Origin: a virus
Reading direction: 5' to 3' (one strand)
Virus record (IMG/VR): IMGVR_UViG_3300017917_003583
Coordinates: 1-64,000 of that record
Length of the DNA stretch: 64,000 nt
Positions 7,415-51,886 of this stretch are shown here, piece after piece (position 1 is the first letter of the stretch; each line of letters opens with the position of its first letter). A program made the position numbers and the translations under genes. The notes under the pieces are model-generated. The model saw only the letters and a list, made by a program, of their open reading frames with translations, was not told the origin of the DNA and made no database searches.

Positions 7415-8092
7415 ATGTTCAAAGAAAACAAGTATTCGCGCACATACTATAACATAATCAACCGAGCGAAGTCAAGAGTGATACCTAAAGAAATTTATAC
7501 GGAAGCACACCATATCATTCCAAAGTCATTAGGAGGGACTGATGACCGCTCAAATATTGCAGTGCTCACCGCTAGGGAGCATTATATTTGTCATTTGCTT
7601 TTGCCAAAAATGACACAAGGGCCAGCATACCACAAAATGATTCGAGCGCATGTCATAATGTCAGGAAGAAAAATATACGGGTCAAGAGTCTATGCATCCT
7701 ACAGGGAAGAATATTCAAAAATAGCTGGAAAGCCGGGTCCTCTTAACCCGATGTGGGGCGTAGATAGATCCGGCGAAAAAAACACGTTCTATGGAAGAAA
7801 ACACTCTATTGAAACCAAGATGAAAATATCCGAGGGACAGAAAAGAAGAAAGAAAGACCGTCCCGAGACATTTAAATCATATAACCGCACCGACGAGCAT
7901 AAACAAGCGGCAAGTAACAGGGCAAAGGCCCAGGCTGCCAAATACACCTTTGAACATCCAGATCATGGAAGATTCTACGGAACGACAGGCGATCTTGCAA
8001 CCGCCTATCAATTTAGTAAAACGTCAGAGGCATACAAATTAGCCAAGGGCATTTACAAAACCTACAAAGGGTGGAAACTTGTTAAGTTGTAG
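7415..8092 (+). CDS. HNH homing endonuclease with NUMOD-like repeats
   Basis: EAHHIIPKSLGGTDDRSNIAVLTAREHYICH motif; repeated NUMOD3-like GRKHSIETKMKISEG. On the opposite strand to both neighbours. Confidence 0.8.
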   Translation: MFKENKYSRTYYNIINRAKSRVIPKEIYTEAHHIIPKSLGGTDDRSNIAVLTAREHYICHLLLPKMTQGPAYHKMIRAHVIMSGRKIYGSRVYASYREEYSKIAGKPGPLNPMWGVDRSGEKNTFYGRKHSIETKMKISEGQKRRKKDRPETFKSYNRTDEHKQAASNRAKAQAAKYTFEHPDHGRFYGTTGDLATAYQFSKTSEAYKLAKGIYKTYKGWKLVKL

Positions 8093-29325: not shown

Positions 29326-30723
29326 TTAACCGCGAGCGTTGGCTCGGACTTGTTCAAACGAGATCTCGTTGTAAAGTTTTCCGTTCTCAAACACCTTCTG
29401 GAGAACATCGACGAATGGGCCAATGCCGCGATCAGTCCAACCGGTAGGTTGATTGACGGCACTAACATATTCGCCCCCACTACTCCAAAGGGTCACTCGG
29501 CCTGCTTTAGATTTCTTACCTGCGTCGGTAATAGGGTCCTTCTGGACATCCACCCAAGTTCCGTTGATACAGGCCGACGACGCCTTCATTGCGAACTTTT
29601 GGGTGTCTCGGTCCACTTGCTGTAGAAGGGCGCCGCCCATACCGAAAGCAATGTTGTCTGCACTCCAGCCCATAGCCATAAAGGCGCCCAGAATGCTGCG
29701 GATAGTGAGTTCATTAACTCCGTCTCCTTGGATGAGTCGAACATTGTTGAGGACACGGAATCCTTTTGAGTTGACGGTGTAGCCAAATTTTTCTCCTAAG
29801 ATTTCAACCAATCGACGGTTAACTTCAACAGGATCACCGGAATCAGGGCGAATAACAACGGTAGCACCACTATCAATAACAAGCTGGCGGAGATCTTCCC
29901 CCCAAAGTTTTGATGCGGCATTGAAAATATCGTAGCTGTCGCTAACCACGGCAACGATGCTACCAGATCGACCAAATTGACGAACCATGTTTTCATAGGC
30001 TTTTACTTCGTTGTCACGACCCCAGCTGGTGATGGTGCTGTGTTCTGCGGCAGGTATTGAGAATCCAGCAATACCAGCATTGTAGTATTCACGAGCAAAG
30101 AGAATACCAGAGATAGTATCAGTGCCCATGAAGTTAACCAAGTGGGCGGCTCCGCCGATACCAGCACTTTCAAGGCTAGAAACACCCCGAGCACCAAAGT
30201 CGTGCAGCTTGAAGTCAATAAGACCAGGATCACCAGTTTTCTCCAGGTATTCAGCAATCACTTGCCGGATTTTCCAACTCTGTGTTGCCACCGTGGTGGG
30301 ATACCAGATGGCACGAAGCAGGGCTGTTTCAAGCCAAGTGGTCAGCCAGAAGCATTCTGGGTCAGTGTTTTCGATTGTGGCCAGCACGTTCTTAACGGGC
30401 ACCACTGTTCCTTCGGGTACTGCTCGGATAACAACTGGAAGAAATCCATTGTGCCGGTCAAGAATGTATTGCCATCCTGCTCGGTTGAAAGGCTCACCGT
30501 GTGCGGTAAGTATTTCATCAGCGACGTCAATGTCAGCCTGGGTGATTGGTTCGAGTAGGTATTCTTTGATAAAGGCCTGGAGTCCAAAGAACACAGTCTT
30601 ATCGTAACGTCCTCCCCGGCTCTCAATATATGAATGGACACCTGTGGTACCTTGTGGCATCTGCTTCCACATACTAACTTTATAACTGTCAGTATTAAGA
30701 ATGATTGATTTTGAAAAAGACAT
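29326..30723 (-). CDS. nadV: nicotinamide phosphoribosyltransferase (Nampt / NadV)
   Basis: SIILNTDSYKVSMW N-terminus and full-length Nampt architecture. ATG at 30723 with AAGGAA RBS; the ORF-track start is an upstream GTG. Confidence 0.85.
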   Translation of the reverse strand: MSFSKSIILNTDSYKVSMWKQMPQGTTGVHSYIESRGGRYDKTVFFGLQAFIKEYLLEPITQADIDVADEILTAHGEPFNRAGWQYILDRHNGFLPVVIRAVPEGTVVPVKNVLATIENTDPECFWLTTWLETALLRAIWYPTTVATQSWKIRQVIAEYLEKTGDPGLIDFKLHDFGARGVSSLESAGIGGAAHLVNFMGTDTISGILFAREYYNAGIAGFSIPAAEHSTITSWGRDNEVKAYENMVRQFGRSGSIVAVVSDSYDIFNAASKLWGEDLRQLVIDSGATVVIRPDSGDPVEVNRRLVEILGEKFGYTVNSKGFRVLNNVRLIQGDGVNELTIRSILGAFMAMGWSADNIAFGMGGALLQQVDRDTQKFAMKASSACINGTWVDVQKDPITDAGKKSKAGRVTLWSSGGEYVSAVNQPTGWTDRGIGPFVDVLQKVFENGKLYNEISFEQVRANARG

Positions 30724-30775
30724 AAAAGTTCCTTTTATATAAAATGCCACCTGTCTATCCAGTGGACTTGTTGTT

Positions 30776-47559: not shown

Positions 47560-47589
47560 AGTATAGCACATTGTGGAGATTCTAGTCAA
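47560..47589 (-). promoter_or_regulatory. promoter P13 (TTGACT-18-TATACT)
   Basis: Drives 47297..47530. Confidence 0.55.
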
Positions 47590-47822
47590 CTGCGATTTCG
47601 AAGGGGCCGTTTGGGTGCAAACTCCTGGGCAGCATACCAGCGGCTGAGTTCACGCTGCACCAGCGATGTGAGATCACCGCCGTGATCGTCGGGCACCACA
47701 AATTGATACGGGCAGTGCGCCCAGGTACCAGTCACAGCAAATTCATAAAACCAAGCCCGATGCTGGGCGTCGGCAACATCAAAAACCATCCAGGGACGAC
47801 TGCGAACTTGCAAAATGCTCAT
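47586..47822 (-). CDS. hypothetical small protein
   Basis: 78-aa ORF. Confidence 0.35.
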   Translation of the reverse strand: MSILQVRSRPWMVFDVADAQHRAWFYEFAVTGTWAHCPYQFVVPDDHGGDLTSLVQRELSRWYAAQEFAPKRPLRNRS

Positions 47823-48385
47823 GATCCAATTCCAAAGTATTGATAGTGAGTGTCAAGATTCCAGGTGTCAAAATCAACCGGAGTTCCATCGTGTGTGTGC
47901 ACAGTGATGCCCAGCGAAGCATATCGCTTCCAGAACCAGTAGATGTCTGGTGTGGTACTGCCAAGTTTGGTACTGTTGAGTGTCATGTGTTTGCTCTTGC
48001 TGAGTTGGCAGGTGGGAATGTTCAGTGCCTCGTCCACAGTGATTCGCCCGTACAGCAACAGGTCTCGCGCCACACTGGCTGGGATCACATGCTCGAACTC
48101 CGCTGGGTCAGTGGCGTTGAGGCCTGCTTCACGATAGTGAGCACCAATGTTTTCTTTGATGCTGTAGCCCTGGTATCGACGCAGCAAAAAATCCATGCCG
48201 TCACGAACCAGTCGTGCAGTTTGTCCTTCCACTTGCAGGCGCGCGTACATGGCCATCAGCAGCCGGAGACCACGCGAGCAGAAGCGATAGGTCTCGTCGT
48301 AGCTGGCGCCGCCGCGGCGCACTGGGGTGGGTTTCTTTTGTGCAAACCCACTGACCCTTTCCATCAATGGTTTTGTGTTAGACAT
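47819..48385 (-). CDS. hypothetical protein
   Basis: 188-aa ORF, ATGA-coupled. Confidence 0.45.
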   Translation of the reverse strand: MSNTKPLMERVSGFAQKKPTPVRRGGASYDETYRFCSRGLRLLMAMYARLQVEGQTARLVRDGMDFLLRRYQGYSIKENIGAHYREAGLNATDPAEFEHVIPASVARDLLLYGRITVDEALNIPTCQLSKSKHMTLNSTKLGSTTPDIYWFWKRYASLGITVHTHDGTPVDFDTWNLDTHYQYFGIGS

Positions 48386-49569
48386 CAGAACAAGTCCTTG
48401 ACATCAGGTTGGTACACCGAGAACGGTTGCTTGGGGAATCGGAACCCAGCAGCCTGACGTGGTACCCAAGTCTTGACCAACTGGTGCCAGAAAAACGCCA
48501 GGCCTTGAGGGGTGTTTTTGCTGTTGCGCGGAGCCTCGGGCCACAGATGCTTGGGAATGCCTTTGTTGGCCTTGTTGTAGGCGTTGAGGTTGGCTTGATG
48601 AGCCACTTCCCAGAACACACCTTTGGCATCAAAGTTGGCGTCAAACATGTCGATACAGTGTTGCGCAAGGTCTTGAATTTCAGCGTCGGTGTAGTGAATA
48701 TCTTGCTGTTCACACAGGTTCAGGAATTCCATGATGATGGGAATTTCCTTGGAATTGATGGCTCGTTGCTGCATGCCAACCACATATTGGCCATACACCG
48801 CAAACTGACGCACCACTTCCACACTGGAATCTTCGATCTCGTTGAGACGACTAATGGCGCCCACTTGGTCGGTGTCGTTGAATTTTTCTGCAGTGAGGAA
48901 CAAGCCAGCTGCCGCCAGGTGCTTCCATTTGGCGTGCGCTGCCACCCACTCGGGCTCGGTCACACCGTCAACCTCGACACCGTAGATCATTTGTTGAAAA
49001 ATGTCAATGATGTCCAGGGCCTTTTTGCCAGCATTCTTGCCCACTGTGGTGTTGTTGTTGATGAAGTTGCTGCGAATCTGGGCGCGGCTGAGAATGTTGT
49101 ACACATTGACCGGGACTTCCACGTCCTCAAACTTCATGCCCAGGCCTTGCACCGCAATGAGGTACAATGCCAGGCTGGTGTGTTGCCCGTCCCAGGCGCC
49201 GTAGCCGGTGGGGGTGGCATACACCTGAATCGGCTGTGCCTGATATGCGCGGAAGTTTTCGATAATGGTAATCAACCACTGCAGATTGGGCTCGCGCTGC
49301 ATGGTGGTGTCGATCTGAATGTCCTTGAGCCGGCCCATGATGCTCTTGCACAAGCGAAAGTTGGGATCGGCAATGCTGGTGATGCCGGGGTTGTTTTGTT
49401 TGAACGTTTGCAACGCCTTGGTCAAGCGACTGTGCCAGTTGCGCTGTGCCTGCACAGGCAGCGCTGCCACAGTTTGGTTGAGACGCTGTACCAGGTCCAC
49501 CAGGTTGGAAGAAGTGTTTTGAAAACGAGCGTTGCGCTGATCAGCGTAGGTGGGAATAGCAGTAGCCAT
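48385..49569 (-). CDS. hypothetical protein with DGQHR-like (ParB/DndB-superfamily) motif
   Basis: YATPTGYGAWDGQHTSLALYL; start at MATAIPT; promoter P14 upstream. Confidence 0.4.
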   Translation of the reverse strand: MATAIPTYADQRNARFQNTSSNLVDLVQRLNQTVAALPVQAQRNWHSRLTKALQTFKQNNPGITSIADPNFRLCKSIMGRLKDIQIDTTMQREPNLQWLITIIENFRAYQAQPIQVYATPTGYGAWDGQHTSLALYLIAVQGLGMKFEDVEVPVNVYNILSRAQIRSNFINNNTTVGKNAGKKALDIIDIFQQMIYGVEVDGVTEPEWVAAHAKWKHLAAAGLFLTAEKFNDTDQVGAISRLNEIEDSSVEVVRQFAVYGQYVVGMQQRAINSKEIPIIMEFLNLCEQQDIHYTDAEIQDLAQHCIDMFDANFDAKGVFWEVAHQANLNAYNKANKGIPKHLWPEAPRNSKNTPQGLAFFWHQLVKTWVPRQAAGFRFPKQPFSVYQPDVKDLF

Positions 49570-49660
49570 GTGAGTCTTTCGTTCGTGGCCATCGATCAGT
49601 GTCAACCCCATGTCAACACTGACCTATTGAGGCCAGCCGGTAAACGTTTACCGTATGTGT

Positions 49661-49690
49661 ATTATACGACCAAGCCCGGATTGTGTGCAA
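49661..49690 (-). promoter_or_regulatory. promoter P14 (TTGCAC-18-TATAAT)
   Basis: Drives 48385..49569; the -35 is embedded in a GCCCGG/CCGGGC hairpin. Confidence 0.55.
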
Positions 49691-49716
49691 CCCGGGCCTG
49701 ATCTAGTGTTGTGATT

Positions 49717-50484
49717 TTACAACACACGCACAGCAACTTCTTGGTGGTCGCTGGCATATCCAATGTACTCGTATCGCACCTGGTGTGCTGCACAGTGTTC
49801 CTGCCAAGCACGATACTCATGCTTGCGCCAGGTGGCATGGTTCCAGTACTCGTTGAACAAGATCACAGTGCCCGGAACAATGTGCTGAGCAAACGCATTC
49901 AACACGGTCTGGGTACTGGAGTACAGGTCAGCATCAAGATGCAGCAAGGCAATGGGACGCTTGAGTTCTTGGGCGAACTTTGCTGCGGTGAACTCATCAA
50001 CAGTGGACTGATCCTGTGGCGGACGCGCACCAAACCAACCCTGCACCAAACGACAGTTGGGCTTGACATCGGGCAAGGGCTGCGCAAAGTGACCAGCTGG
50101 CAAGTCGTTGAATGCTTCGGGCAAGCCCTGCCAACTGTCAAAGCCCACAATTTCATGATCAGGCAACCAGTGTGCAAACTGGTTCAGAGTTCGTCCAGTT
50201 GCGGTGCCAAACTCCAGTATCACACCTTGACTCAGCAATTTGGGATCCAGCTGTGTTGTGGTGACCCAGTGATACAAGTCATAGTCGGTCACGCAGTCTC
50301 GCAGATCCTCAAGGTTGTTGTCCACCATGTACTGCCAAGTGGTTTCGGTGCCACGTAGTCGTCCCATGTGCCGAATGTTCATGACATCGGTGTGGTAGCC
50401 AAGGTCTTTGAGTGTTTGGCTATTTTCGCCATACCGCTGGCGCTGCAACTCTCGATCAAGTGCTCGGTGCTCGTTTGGATTCAT
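49717..50484 (-). CDS. class I SAM-dependent methyltransferase (TylF/MycF-like O-methyltransferase fold)
   Basis: ILEFGTATGRT SAM-binding loop, LHLDADLYSST, and ILFNEY. ATG at 50484; the ORF-track start is TTG. Confidence 0.65.
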   Translation of the reverse strand: MNPNEHRALDRELQRQRYGENSQTLKDLGYHTDVMNIRHMGRLRGTETTWQYMVDNNLEDLRDCVTDYDLYHWVTTTQLDPKLLSQGVILEFGTATGRTLNQFAHWLPDHEIVGFDSWQGLPEAFNDLPAGHFAQPLPDVKPNCRLVQGWFGARPPQDQSTVDEFTAAKFAQELKRPIALLHLDADLYSSTQTVLNAFAQHIVPGTVILFNEYWNHATWRKHEYRAWQEHCAAHQVRYEYIGYASDHQEVAVRVL

Positions 50485-50503
50485 AAAAACTTTCAAAATA
50501 ATG

Positions 50504-50737
50504 TCAGGCCCAGGTCAACAAAAAGGCCAATTGGTCGCGTTCATCCTTGAAGTGGAAAGTGTACACCCAAGCGCCTGTAACGGCAGTGCTGGCTTCAGTG
50601 TCCACCTCCCAGCGCCACTCGCCGGTGCATTGCGATTGACACCACGCCAACAAGCGGGACAGTGTGCCATAAGGTTTGCATACCTGTGTTTGATATGCAA
50701 ACACCTCGGTGTCAATTGATTCAGCATGCCAGTGCAT
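50504..50737 (-). CDS. small protein, LRW-family-like outlier
   Basis: LAWCQSQCTGEWRW...DERDQLAFLLTWA resembles the array family; no RBS found. Confidence 0.3.
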   Translation of the reverse strand: MHWHAESIDTEVFAYQTQVCKPYGTLSRLLAWCQSQCTGEWRWEVDTEASTAVTGAWVYTFHFKDERDQLAFLLTWA

Positions 50738-50785
50738 GCATATAATTATGGCTGCGGGGCACAACCATAAAAATATGCCAAGTCA

Positions 50786-51886
50786 TTATAGCAGATCCAC
50801 CCGCTCCCATGGCAAGTGATCTTTGCCAAAGTGACCATAATTGGTGGTCGAGCTGTAGATGGGCCGGAACAGGTTAAAACGCTCGATGATACCCGCTGGT
50901 GTCAGGTCCACAAGGCCAGAAATCTTGTTGGTCAACTGTCTGCTAAGGGCAGCATCGTGAGTTTCTATATAGAAACTCATGGGTTGCTTGACGCCGATTG
51001 CATAGCTGACCTGGCATGTGGCCCAGGGTGCAGCACCACTGGCCACAATGTTCTTGGCAATGTATCGCATCATGTATGCTGCCGAGCGATCCACCTTGGT
51101 GGGATCCTTGCCCGAGAAGGCGCCACCACCATGCGGAGCGTAGCCACCGTAGGTGTCCACAATGATCTTGCGTCCGGTCACACCTGCATCGCCGTCGGGT
51201 CCGCCAATCACAAATCGTCCAGTGGGGTTGATGTAGAACTCGGTGTTGTTATCCACGTATTTCCCGGGCAGGAGAGCACGAATCATGGATTCCACTGCAC
51301 CACGCACCAGTTCAATATCCACGGCGTCACTGTGCTGAGTGCTGCATACCACCTTGGCAATACGCACCGGAACATTGTTGTCATCGTACTCAAACGTGAC
51401 CTGACTCTTGGCGTCTGGGCCCAGCCATTCAACTGTGCCATTGCGTCGCTGGCGAGCCAGCATGTCCACGATTCTGTGGCTCCAGTAGATGGCCGACGGC
51501 ATGTAGTTTTCGGTTTCATTGCAGGCATAGCCAAACATGAGACCTTGATCCCCGGCACCAAAGCTGTCAGTGCCCAGGGCGATGTCAGCAGATTGTCCGT
51601 GCAAGAGATTGGTCAGTTCCAGATTCTGCCAGTGGAATCCCGACTGCTCATATCCAATGCGCCGGACTGTTTCTCGCACGGCAGTTTCGACTTGGTCAAA
51701 ATCCAATGCACCTTTGTACTCTCCAGCCAGGACCACACGGTTGGTGGTCACCAGGGTTTCGCAGGCACACCGGTACGCAGGATTTTGATGCTGCATGACC
51801 AGATCCAACACTGCATCACTGATGGCATCGGCCACTTTGTCTGGGTGTCCTTCGGACACTGATTCTGATGTAAACAAATAACTCAT
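50786..51886 (-). CDS. metK: S-adenosylmethionine synthetase
   Basis: MSYLFTSESVSEGHPDKVADAISDAVLD N-terminus plus GGGAFSGKDPTKVDRS. Start at 51886 with AAAGGAA RBS. Confidence 0.85.
   Translation of the reverse strand: MSYLFTSESVSEGHPDKVADAISDAVLDLVMQHQNPAYRCACETLVTTNRVVLAGEYKGALDFDQVETAVRETVRRIGYEQSGFHWQNLELTNLLHGQSADIALGTDSFGAGDQGLMFGYACNETENYMPSAIYWSHRIVDMLARQRRNGTVEWLGPDAKSQVTFEYDDNNVPVRIAKVVCSTQHSDAVDIELVRGAVESMIRALLPGKYVDNNTEFYINPTGRFVIGGPDGDAGVTGRKIIVDTYGGYAPHGGGAFSGKDPTKVDRSAAYMMRYIAKNIVASGAAPWATCQVSYAIGVKQPMSFYIETHDAALSRQLTNKISGLVDLTPAGIIERFNLFRPIYSSTTNYGHFGKDHLPWERVDLL

Follow-up and report, generated by a model that had tools for sequence, protein, structure and literature searches.

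GmrS/GmrD (GmrSD) is a Type IV restriction enzyme that combines DUF262 with DUF1524 and acts on sugar-modified DNA. In the window, the whole 64,000-nucleotide stretch of viral DNA analyzed here, we found a gene pair of similar layout, encoding a ParB/Srx-fold protein with QR, DGQ(Q/H)x, and FxxxN motifs and, directly downstream, a separate small protein, p188, which is a candidate subunit of the His-Me/HNH type. A further likeness concerns sugars: GmrSD targets sugar-modified DNA, and the phage pair is flanked by sugar enzymes in both of the clades in which we found it. Unlike GmrSD, the phage pair is carried by large phages of the lytic type and does not occur in cellular genomes, its pentapeptide ends in Thr instead of Arg, and its partner protein is either a classical HNH nuclease (PF01844) or p188, not DUF1524. 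Moreover, the phage family scored at most 18.7 bits on GmrSD_N, a value reached by 1 of 45 members and lying below the cut-off of 33.2, and none of the 45 matched the PADLOC models for GmrSD, DndB, SspE, or BrxU.

The QR pair, the DGQHR pentapeptide, and FxxxN form the motif set of DGQHR and DUF262 DNA-associated proteins, and the DGQ(Q/H)R motif, in which the Arg is highly conserved, has been proposed to bind nucleotide (PMC4619093). DndB and other DGQHR proteins (PF14072, TIGR03187), as well as DpdB, share with the phage protein the DGQH core, QR, FxxxN, the ParB/Srx fold, and a context associated with DNA modification; however, the phage locus has no Dnd or Dpd partner genes, and its pentapeptide lacks the Arg of DGQHR. 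DUF6551 (PF20188) is likewise a phage ParB-fold family, and DUF6551 fusions were reported to bind nucleotide, CTP or ATP (bioRxiv 10.1101/2025.10.10.680097). It was the top Pfam match of distant members of the phage family (3.8e-5), but this match was partial, covering profile positions 3-55 of 242 over the QR...DGQH region, and stayed below the gathering score (23.8 versus 26.8 bits), and the window protein itself had no DUF6551 match in Pfam. The features of the locus are listed in Table 1.

Table 1. Features of the ParB-like/p188 locus and its surroundings, in window coordinates
Feature	Position	Strand	Basis
metK, 366 aa	50786..51886	minus	TIGR01034, Pfam; facultative cassette neighbor
s77, small conserved ORF, 77 aa	50504..50737	minus	homologs in related loci
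TylF/CalS11-type SAM-dependent O-methyltransferase, 255 aa	49717..50484	minus	Pfam, PDB profile search
GC-rich hairpin GCCCGG...CCGGGC, terminator-like	49674..49697	minus	sequence and ortholog alignment
Sigma-70-like promoter TGCACA-17-TATAAT ("P14")	49661..49689	minus	consensus scan and conservation
Structured 5' leader of ParB-like gene	49570..49660	minus	covariation, covariance model R1
ParB/Srx-fold DGQHR-like protein, 394 aa	48385..49569	minus	motifs, AlphaFold model
p188, candidate divergent His-Me/HNH-type nuclease, 188 aa	47819..48385	minus	position, residue pattern
78-aa ORF, frequent but mobile neighbor	47586..47822	minus	ORF list, homologs in related loci

An earlier note on this DNA had described a cluster of metK, a small ORF, a TylF-type methyltransferase gene, and a gene for a DGQHR-like protein. 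The coordinates and minus-strand orientation given there for these four ORFs are correct, and the MetK, methyltransferase, and DGQHR-like ParB assignments agree with our results, yet the description was incomplete because it left out the 188-aa gene, the most constant partner of the 394-aa gene. In the 394-aa protein, Q91-R92 lies upstream and F169xxxN173 downstream of D127-G-Q-H-T131 (WDGQHT); QR and FxxxN are invariant in the family, and so is the Thr of the pentapeptide, found in 45 of 45 diverse members. Since this Thr stands in place of Arg, the family may have lost nucleotide binding or changed it. The core of the AlphaFold model (pLDDT 90.9) has the ParB/Srx fold expected of a GmrSD sensing subunit. 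ParB folds match no more than about 100 of its 394 residues, and the remainder, which includes helical regions at both termini, has no fold assignment. A structural neighbor in BFVD is annotated "sulfur modification protein." No family HMM was matched above threshold: distant members gave below-threshold Pfam matches to ParB-clan families only, namely, DUF6551, GmrSD_N, and DndB (PF14072; E 0.026 in 1 of 45 members), and neither TIGR03187 nor any other NCBIfam model matched the 394-aa protein. Canonical ParB, the CTPase clamp of TIGR00180, was considered and rejected, as its box II GERRxR is replaced by DGQHT and only its N-terminal fold matches; no ParBc or HTH match was found in Pfam for the 394-aa protein or its family members. 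All members of the family come from large contigs of uncultured phages, reaching 453 kb in length, and searches of 50,697 phage records and 185,579 cellular genomes yielded no relative. It was fair to call this protein uncharacterized, because it has no Pfam, PHROG, NCBIfam, or PADLOC assignment and no relatives in cultured phages or cells.

Comparison of 84 related metagenomic phage loci revealed that the constant unit is the ParB-like gene together with a small gene abutting it downstream. In the window, the p188 start codon overlaps the stop codon of the ParB-like gene by one base (TGATG). In the window's clade, 34 of 42 loci have a p188 homolog, which in 26 of them follows the ParB-like gene directly, and in the sister clade the small abutting gene encodes a classical HNH nuclease in all 42 loci (above the Pfam HNH cut-off in L082, and with a precomputed HNH match in L004). 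The pair is kept without the methyltransferase gene in L022, L024, L039, L041, and L042, and also without metK. As p188 had no match in Pfam or the PDB and hhalign detected no similarity to the sister-clade HNH proteins, and there was none to DUF1524 either, we regard it as a candidate nuclease on the grounds of its position and residue pattern. Invariant in p188 are E98-H99-V-x-P102, P124, and C126, whereas residue 122 is Asn in 17 of 19 sequences and His in 2, and position 133 is His, Asp, or Asn. The p188 sequence reads E98-H99...N122...H133, a resemblance to the (E/D)-H-N-N motif of His-Me/HNH nucleases that is confined to the motif level.

The promoter P14, which the earlier note had placed before the 394-aa gene, is present, with 10 of 12 consensus matches, and aligns with a better conserved GTTGACA...TATAAT/TATACT pair in at least 20 orthologous intergenic regions. 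Its support comes from this conservation, because the scan by itself was not above chance (7 sites found versus 5.4 expected). The -35 hexamer lies in the loop of the GC-rich hairpin that follows the methyltransferase stop codon. In orthologs the stems of this hairpin carry compensating changes (CCCGG/CGGG, ACCCAG/CTGGGT, and CCCCG/CGGGG) and are followed by TTTT, and because of this T-run the hairpin looks like a terminator. The transcript leader comprises a 5' hairpin (49653..49638) and, at 49635..49586, a nested three-helix element whose apical loop, AUGGGG, is conserved; a Shine-Dalgarno sequence and the ATG come next. Of the 12 pairs that RNAalifold predicted, 10 show compensatory changes; 96.1% of the cells in the pair count were paired, compared with 19-41% in slid controls, and none of 500 shuffles reached the observed values. 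In the window and 28 further loci, 12 of which had not been used in building the model (including L085, identical in sequence to the window), covariance model R1 detected the element once each, and invariably right in front of the start of the ParB-like gene. The leader RNA is thus tied to the ParB-like gene and not to the methyltransferase gene, from which the 394-aa gene is divided by hairpin, promoter, and leader. A search of the whole window against Rfam 15 gave no match at gathering thresholds, and the leader belongs to no Rfam family; the sole match below threshold, Thr_leader (21.7 versus 55 bits), lies upstream of it.

The methyltransferase matched Methyltransf_24 (PF13578; 7e-9, 36.9 bits versus a gathering score of 26.3), TylF (PF05711; 1.2e-5, 25.1 versus 23 bits), phrog_6608 (1e-34), and the glycosyltransferase family phrog_8858 (5e-24). 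The closest solved structure in a PDB profile search was that of the TDP-rhamnose 3'-O-methyltransferase CalS11 (6.9e-15), followed by NovP and MycF. LEFGxATGRT, GFDSFxGLPE, LHxDxDLY, and F(D/N)EY are conserved in 18 homologs and align to CalS11, so that, like these TylF-family enzymes, the phage protein has the SAM-binding motif, GFDSFxGLP, and the DxDxY and (D/N)E acidic residues aligned to the metal site (D184, D186, (D/N)211, and E212, with Asn at 211 in the window). Unlike them, it is extended at the N terminus by about 80 aa, a feature specific to its subfamily, and its gene lies beside the ParB-like operon, not in a natural-product or glycan cluster. Of 43 loci with this extended subfamily, 35 have it next to the ParB-like gene, compared with none of 34 for the shorter homologs. 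Conversely, the methyltransferase gene is a frequent neighbor of the ParB-like pair (35 of 42 loci), yet some loci whose gene order is otherwise the same, L039 and L042 among them, lack it.

MetK exceeded the cut-off of TIGR01034 (4.9e-139, 463.5 versus 309.4 bits) and matched the N, M, and C S-AdoMet_synt domains of Pfam above threshold; by these profiles it is a true methionine adenosyltransferase. Like other phage MetK proteins (PHROG 1569), known from unrelated cultured phages such as those of Streptococcus and Faecalibacterium and annotated in Helicobacter phages as well, it is a full-length canonical SAM synthetase, but it shares only 46-54% identity with those proteins and belongs to an uncultured jumbo-phage lineage. 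Of 19 related loci that were informative, 8 have metK upstream; in the others it does not intervene between the flanking genes p264 and s77, which are next to each other or almost so. MetK is therefore facultative to the cassette.

As the most likely reading, with a probability of roughly 0.4, we propose that the functional core of the locus is the two-gene ParB-like/p188 operon, encoding a phage-made DNA endonuclease, and not a pathway driven by MetK. Stop/start coupling would link translation of the DGQHR/DUF262-like ParB/Srx-fold protein to that of its small partner. By analogy with the two subunits of GmrS/GmrD, the proteins might form a complex in which DNA, and perhaps also a nucleotide required for activity, is bound by the ParB-fold subunit, which would gate a His-Me/HNH-type nuclease subunit. 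Together they could serve as an endonuclease in lytic infection by a large phage, with the DNA of the host or of foreign competitors as the target. The operon's own sigma-70-like promoter and conserved structured leader suggest tight post-transcriptional control, as might be expected for a toxic nuclease. The TylF-type enzyme encoded upstream would be a lineage-specific accessory from a separate transcription unit, perhaps with a role in self-protection, and MetK an optional supplier of SAM to it or to other phage methyltransferases. We infer a phage-only split nuclease resembling GmrS/GmrD and possibly linked to sugar chemistry, bearing in mind that synteny among related phages may stem from common descent and not from shared function.

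The earlier note had combined MetK, the methyltransferase, and the DGQHR-like protein in one modification module. Its family and fold assignments hold, but a single MetK-fed pathway seems doubtful, because MetK is present in only 8 of 19 loci and the methyltransferase gene is sometimes absent and is separated from the 394-aa gene. In this idea, spelled out as a rival, the ParB-like protein would be a DNA-bound loader or regulator similar to DndB or DpdB, the TylF-type enzyme would O-methylate a hydroxyl, either that of a modified base or that of a DNA-attached sugar, with SAM from MetK, and the partner would nick or process DNA. The preference of the extended methyltransferase subfamily for the ParB-like gene speaks in favor of this, as do the sugar-nucleotide enzymes flanking the sister-clade pair (an epimerase cluster in 14 of 42 loci, and genes for an HldE-like kinase and an adenylyltransferase in L004), a second methyltransferase (Methyltransf_23) inserted beside the ParB-like gene in L006, and PTPS and radical SAM genes nearby in L002. 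Fusions of ParB-fold domains to methyltransferases are, moreover, common in phages (bioRxiv 10.1101/2025.10.10.680097). Against it, the 25 of 35 Pfam families listed for the 97 window ORFs include no glycosyltransferase, hydroxymethylase, deazaguanine, DpdA, or Que gene, for which reason a DNA sugar as the methyltransferase substrate remains speculation. The search of the methyltransferase gene proposed in the earlier note returned the expected TylF-type family, but the solved relatives all act on small-molecule sugars or nucleotide sugars, none on DNA. Considering also that the methyltransferase and ParB-like genes form separate transcription units, each found without the other, we regard this idea as improbable. 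As to the Dnd-type role suggested for the DGQHR-like protein, a nuclease function would fit better, given that the sister-clade partner is always an HNH endonuclease, in an arrangement resembling GmrS/GmrD.

Somewhat less unlikely, though still behind the endonuclease operon, is that the genes are functionally unrelated neighbors, their adjacency reflecting inherited order in one phage lineage. The methyltransferase would then O-methylate a glycan or nucleotide sugar, for example on a virion glycoprotein, in the host envelope, or as an NDP-sugar, as proposed for homologs in other phages, and metK would be one more auxiliary metabolic gene of the usual kind. This is consistent with the sugar O-methyltransferases as nearest characterized enzymes, with the phrog_8858 match, with tblastn matches to mycobacteriophage genes annotated as O-methyltransferase or glycosyltransferase, and with the setting of short homologs in other phages, which either sit between the genes for portal and major capsid protein or have a sugar epimerase/dehydratase gene as neighbor. 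The terminator-like hairpin and separate promoter between the two genes, the variable presence of genes on both sides, and a syntenic block that takes in the further small genes c9, c11, c16, and s77 point the same way. It accounts poorly, however, for the strong enrichment of the extended subfamily beside the ParB-like gene, which persists even at about 40-45% ParB-like identity with differing flanks (L002 versus L001), and the Pfam families listed for the window include no nearby glycosyltransferase. Very improbable is a role of the ParB/Srx-fold protein as a phosphotransferase similar to SerK, SbnI, or sulfiredoxin, acting on a small molecule or protein and not on DNA, considering that its QR/DGQH/FxxxN set belongs to DNA-associated proteins, that its obligatory sister-clade partner is an HNH nuclease, and that conserved metabolic partner genes are absent.

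Two small ORFs accompany the locus. The one between metK and the methyltransferase gene, s77, is a real conserved gene: homologs occur in more than 20 related loci (E 1e-9 to 1e-16), where their distance upstream from the ParB-like gene varies from 3 to 6 genes, and its only family match, to Imm53 (0.041), is below threshold. The 78-aa ORF, which gave no family match, overlaps the p188 stop with its start by 4 bases. In several loci (e.g., L001, L007, L013, L020, L030, L033, and L036) a homolog comes right after p188, and in others (e.g., L006, L010, and L039) it is found upstream of the methyltransferase gene.

The protein encoded by the ParB-like gene of the window, 394 aa long, matched nothing in Pfam, PHROGs, NCBIfam, PADLOC or the PDB sequences, and it lies outside every curated family. 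PADLOC models likewise found no match among the window proteins or 45 members of its family, and a few distant members gave sub-threshold Pfam matches to DUF6551, GmrSD_N and DndB. DGQHR/DUF262 domains are defined by a QR pair, a pentapeptide and an FxxxN motif (PMC4619093). The ParB-like protein contains WDGQHT, and its invariant residues, namely R92 (in IDxTxQR), Q129-H130-T131 (in WDGQHT) and R166 in 45 diverse members as well as F169 and N173 in a 53-sequence set, match these elements, with the final Arg of the pentapeptide replaced by Thr. This exchange may have altered nucleotide use. An alignment of close homologues gave a poor structure model (pLDDT 68.7), and a more diverse alignment was used instead (pLDDT 90.9, pTM 0.85). 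Foldseek matched the resulting model best to CTP-bound ParB, Noc and sulfiredoxin; the top matches in the viral structure library BFVD were uncharacterised phage proteins, a 'sulfur modification protein', ParB/Srx proteins and T4-like cyanophage proteins. The known fold covers only about 100 residues. All four minus-strand ORFs listed in the earlier note are present, and since both the motifs and a ParB/Srx fold core were found, its label 'DGQHR-like' is right at the level of fold and motif.

We found 489 homologues of this protein at E<=1e-3; the family is widespread and comprises about 500 clusters at the 90% identity level and 161 at the 50% level. Its members measure approximately 380-410 aa, and all are without name or annotation. 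They occurred only on metagenomic contigs, up to 362 kb in length (453 kb in IMG/VR), from large uncultured phages. No relative of the 394-aa protein or of a sister-clade member was detected in 50,697 phage records, and none in a cellular scan of 185,579 bacterial and archaeal species with one genome per species. The 4.9-kb region of the window had no near DNA match in cultured phages. A very distant family member used as query against cultured phages gave weak ParB-like matches only, and the Phosso pair had only a sub-threshold DUF6551 match. Most of the length of the model is matched structurally by three uncharacterised proteins of 350-390 aa from the cultured T4-like cyanophages S-IOM18, S-RIM2 and S-PRM1 (BFVD R9TPE2, M4PQ01 and A0A346FKK5), and their gene neighbourhoods could yield an experimentally tractable homologue.

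Gene neighbourhoods were compared in 84 loci (L001-L004 from contig look-ups, L005-L084 from IMG/VR), 42 in the clade of the window, in whose group the ParB-like proteins share 75-84% identity, and 42 in a sister clade whose members are 33-39% identical to the window protein. Nearly invariable is a small gene that abuts the ParB-like gene on its downstream side. In all 42 sister-clade loci, it encodes a partner of about 155 aa with a classical HNH signature, which exceeded the HNH threshold of Pfam in L082 and in L004 carries a precomputed HNH match. In the clade of the window, the partner is the 188-aa protein p188, present in 34 of 42 loci and directly downstream in 26; its start codon and the ParB-like stop codon overlap as TGATG in the window. 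Of the loci lacking a directly adjoining p188 gene, at least three (L005, L014, L040) are cut off by a contig edge, and seven have the p188 gene in the next position but one, past an insert; five of these inserts are GIY-YIG-like. In L008, L010, L016, L020 and L025, the ParB-like and p188 genes are separated by a GIY-YIG- or T5orf172-like ORF of about 190 aa.

Searches of Pfam, PDB and profile homologues provided no annotation for p188, and hhalign against the sister-clade HNH protein returned a probability of 0.1. In the p188 alignment, E98-H99-V-x-P102, P124 and C126 are invariant, position 122 holds N in 17 of 19 sequences (H in the other two), and position 133 is H, D or N, a pattern that reads like a His-Me/HNH motif. 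From this motif and the positional equivalence with a real HNH protein, we infer that p188 is a candidate nuclease. The pair as a homing endonuclease was considered and rejected because of its fixed syntenic position and strong conservation; true homing-type inserts (GIY-YIG-like, HNH_3-like) are sporadic between the cassette genes. Two inserts in L006 separate the TylF-type methyltransferase gene from the ParB-like gene. In another locus (L106 5001..6405), the methyltransferase gene is directly followed by the p188 gene with no ParB-like gene between them, which looks like a deletion variant. A 78-aa ORF next to p188 has homologues whose place varies among relatives: some follow p188, others precede the methyltransferase gene.

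Coordinates of the cassette genes, regulatory elements and neighbouring features
Feature	Location	Strand	Details
ParB-like gene	window 48385..49569	-	394 aa
p188 gene	window 47819..48385	-	188 aa
Methyltransferase gene	window 49717..50484	-	TylF-type, 255 aa
s77	window 50504..50737	-	77 aa
metK	window 50786..51886	-	methionine adenosyltransferase
Promoter of ParB-like gene	window 49689..49661	-	TGCACA-17-TATAAT
Leader	window 49570..49660	-	three nested helices, 5' hairpin, apical loop AUGGGG
Leader in relatives	L001 9951..10051; L013 7873..7973; 26 further loci		covariance model
78-aa ORF	window 47586..47822	-	overlaps p188 stop codon by 4 bases
Inserts in L006	6800..7417; 7594..7989	-; +	Methyltransf_23 gene and weak HNH_3-like ORF
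Sugar-nucleotide genes	L004 11635..14676 and 13 other sister-clade loci		directly after ParB-like/HNH pair
NAD-salvage set	window 29326..30750 and other ORFs	- (29326..30750)	NAMPT, NUDIX and cytidylyltransferase-like matches (Pfam)
Genes after the cassette in a 362-kb relative	L001 12542..15242		B12-binding radical SAM protein (655 aa), GGACT-family protein, DUF6552 protein

Alignment of 27 regions orthologous to the intergenic region 49570..49716 revealed a GC-rich hairpin with compensating stems, whose loop contains the -35 hexamer and behind which most orthologues have a T-run, then a conserved -10 hexamer, a structured leader, and a Shine-Dalgarno sequence with ATG. With this hairpin, promoter and leader lying between the genes, the ParB-like/p188 operon is therefore its own regulated unit, apart from the methyltransferase gene. 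RNAalifold applied to 17 leaders predicted three nested helices with compensatory changes in 10 of 12 pairs. A separate pair count put 96.1% of cells as paired; none of 500 shuffles attained any of five measures, and structures slid by 1-3 columns were 19-41% paired. In the window and in 28 other loci, the covariance model detected a single copy each; 12 of the latter were outside model building, including one (L085) with the window sequence. Some of the leader-bearing loci are without the methyltransferase gene. The copy ends at the ParB-like start codon; in L006 and L014 some 400 nt separate it from the ParB-like gene downstream. No Rfam family matched the leader, and a SAM riboswitch was rejected on this ground; it is a candidate new cis-regulatory RNA. 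In L002, L032, L033, L036 and L038, a covarying hairpin of another, shorter type occupies this place, about 100 nt ahead of the ParB-like start, with compensating stems (GCAGTAA/TTACTGC, GCAACAA/TTGTTGC, GCCACAA/TTGTGGC, GTAGTGA/TCGCTAC), followed by CTTACAATTT and a Shine-Dalgarno sequence. L085 is a 4.8-kb Logan contig (SRR5831666) with the same leader (61.8 bits), a MetK identical to that of the window and a methyltransferase called with a length of 243 aa; the contig probably represents this phage in a different sequencing run.

The best-supported reading, with a probability of roughly 0.4, is a phage-encoded two-subunit enzyme built like GmrS/GmrD, in which the DGQHR/DUF262-type ParB-fold subunit would work with the His-Me/HNH nuclease subunit and the leader would exert tight control of their expression. 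The architecture is like that of a bacterial anti-phage restriction enzyme, but here it is encoded by the phage. A kinase-type role of the ParB/Srx fold is a minor and very improbable alternative. The methyltransferase scores above threshold with both Methyltransf_24 and TylF of Pfam, and among solved structures the sugar O-methyltransferases CalS11, NovP and MycF are closest to it; an alignment of 18 homologues retains the SAM motif, GFDSFxGLPE, LHxDxDLY and F(D/N)EY. The earlier note had proposed that MetK, methyltransferase and DGQHR-like protein form a SAM-dependent modification or anti-defence module; on this idea, which appears doubtful, the methyltransferase would protect the phage's own substrate. 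In the clade of the window, the methyltransferase gene precedes the ParB-like gene in 35 of 42 loci (28 times at position -1); for its N-terminally extended subfamily, 35 of 43 loci have a ParB-like gene downstream and one more has p188 alone. The methyltransferase gene is missing from otherwise syntenic loci such as L039 and L042, in which the same c18-c11-c9 genes are directly followed by the ParB-like gene. Somewhat less doubtful, if still unlikely, is an independent glycan or NDP-sugar enzyme that merely shares the syntenic block. Shorter homologues in other phages had the ParB-like gene nearby in none of 34 loci; they are placed between portal and capsid genes of SU10 type, or next to a sugar epimerase/dehydratase gene. 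Their relatives in mycobacteriophages carry the annotation O-methyltransferase or glycosyltransferase.

In the sister clade, sugar-nucleotide enzymes follow the ParB-like/HNH pair, with an epimerase cluster in 14 of 42 loci. The genes encode epimerases, a cupin, cytidylyl/adenylyltransferase-like proteins and a PfkB kinase and are ADP-heptose-like; in L004, kinase, adenylyltransferase and epimerase genes follow the pair. These recurring neighbours are a concrete, testable lead to sugar-based nucleic-acid chemistry. It is tempting to speculate, very improbable as it is, that the phage glycosylates its DNA, that the TylF-type enzyme O-methylates the attached sugar using SAM supplied in some lineages by the phage's own MetK, and that the ParB-like/His-Me pair, as a phage-encoded GmrSD-like nuclease, would spare the methyl-sugar mark and destroy unmarked or differently marked DNA of the host or of rival phages. 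If true, the virus would carry a system of self/non-self discrimination built on a DNA modification not described before, with a new cis-regulatory RNA in control.

Combinations of the ParB fold with HNH and fusions of it with methyltransferases are known (PMC4619093; bioRxiv 10.1101/2025.10.10.680097), as are phage MetK genes. New are a large family, restricted to phages and marked by DGQHT, that is obligately paired with HNH or the unassigned p188 and associated with a TylF-type enzyme, and a leader RNA not described before. Should the GmrS/GmrD-like pair be a nuclease, it would be a phage-side addition to ParB/Srx-plus-HNH enzymes and might account for the disposal of host or competitor DNA by these phages; if the genes are mere neighbours, a cleaner annotation of a common jumbo-phage early region is still gained.

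MetK is a canonical methionine adenosyltransferase (TIGR01034, 4.9e-139) with all three Pfam domains. It is in view in eight of 19 informative loci; in the other 11, p264, the gene preceding metK in the window, is followed by s77 or the methyltransferase gene with no MetK between. A literature search on phage MetK yielded no functional precedent for this lineage. The 77-aa product of s77 is without family assignment, yet it is kept in more than 20 related loci. The remaining gene content of the window is typical of a jumbo-phage accessory region: besides NAMPT, NUDIX and cytidylyltransferase genes, it includes PhoH, DnaJ, Fe/Mn SOD, IF-1, Band_7, AAA ATPases, a 963-aa protein part of which is subtilase-like, and two ORFs resembling NUMOD3 homing endonucleases. 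The window is without a radical SAM gene at the position where L001 has one, and a GGACT-like gene (cluster 24) recurs near the cassette in 13 loci.
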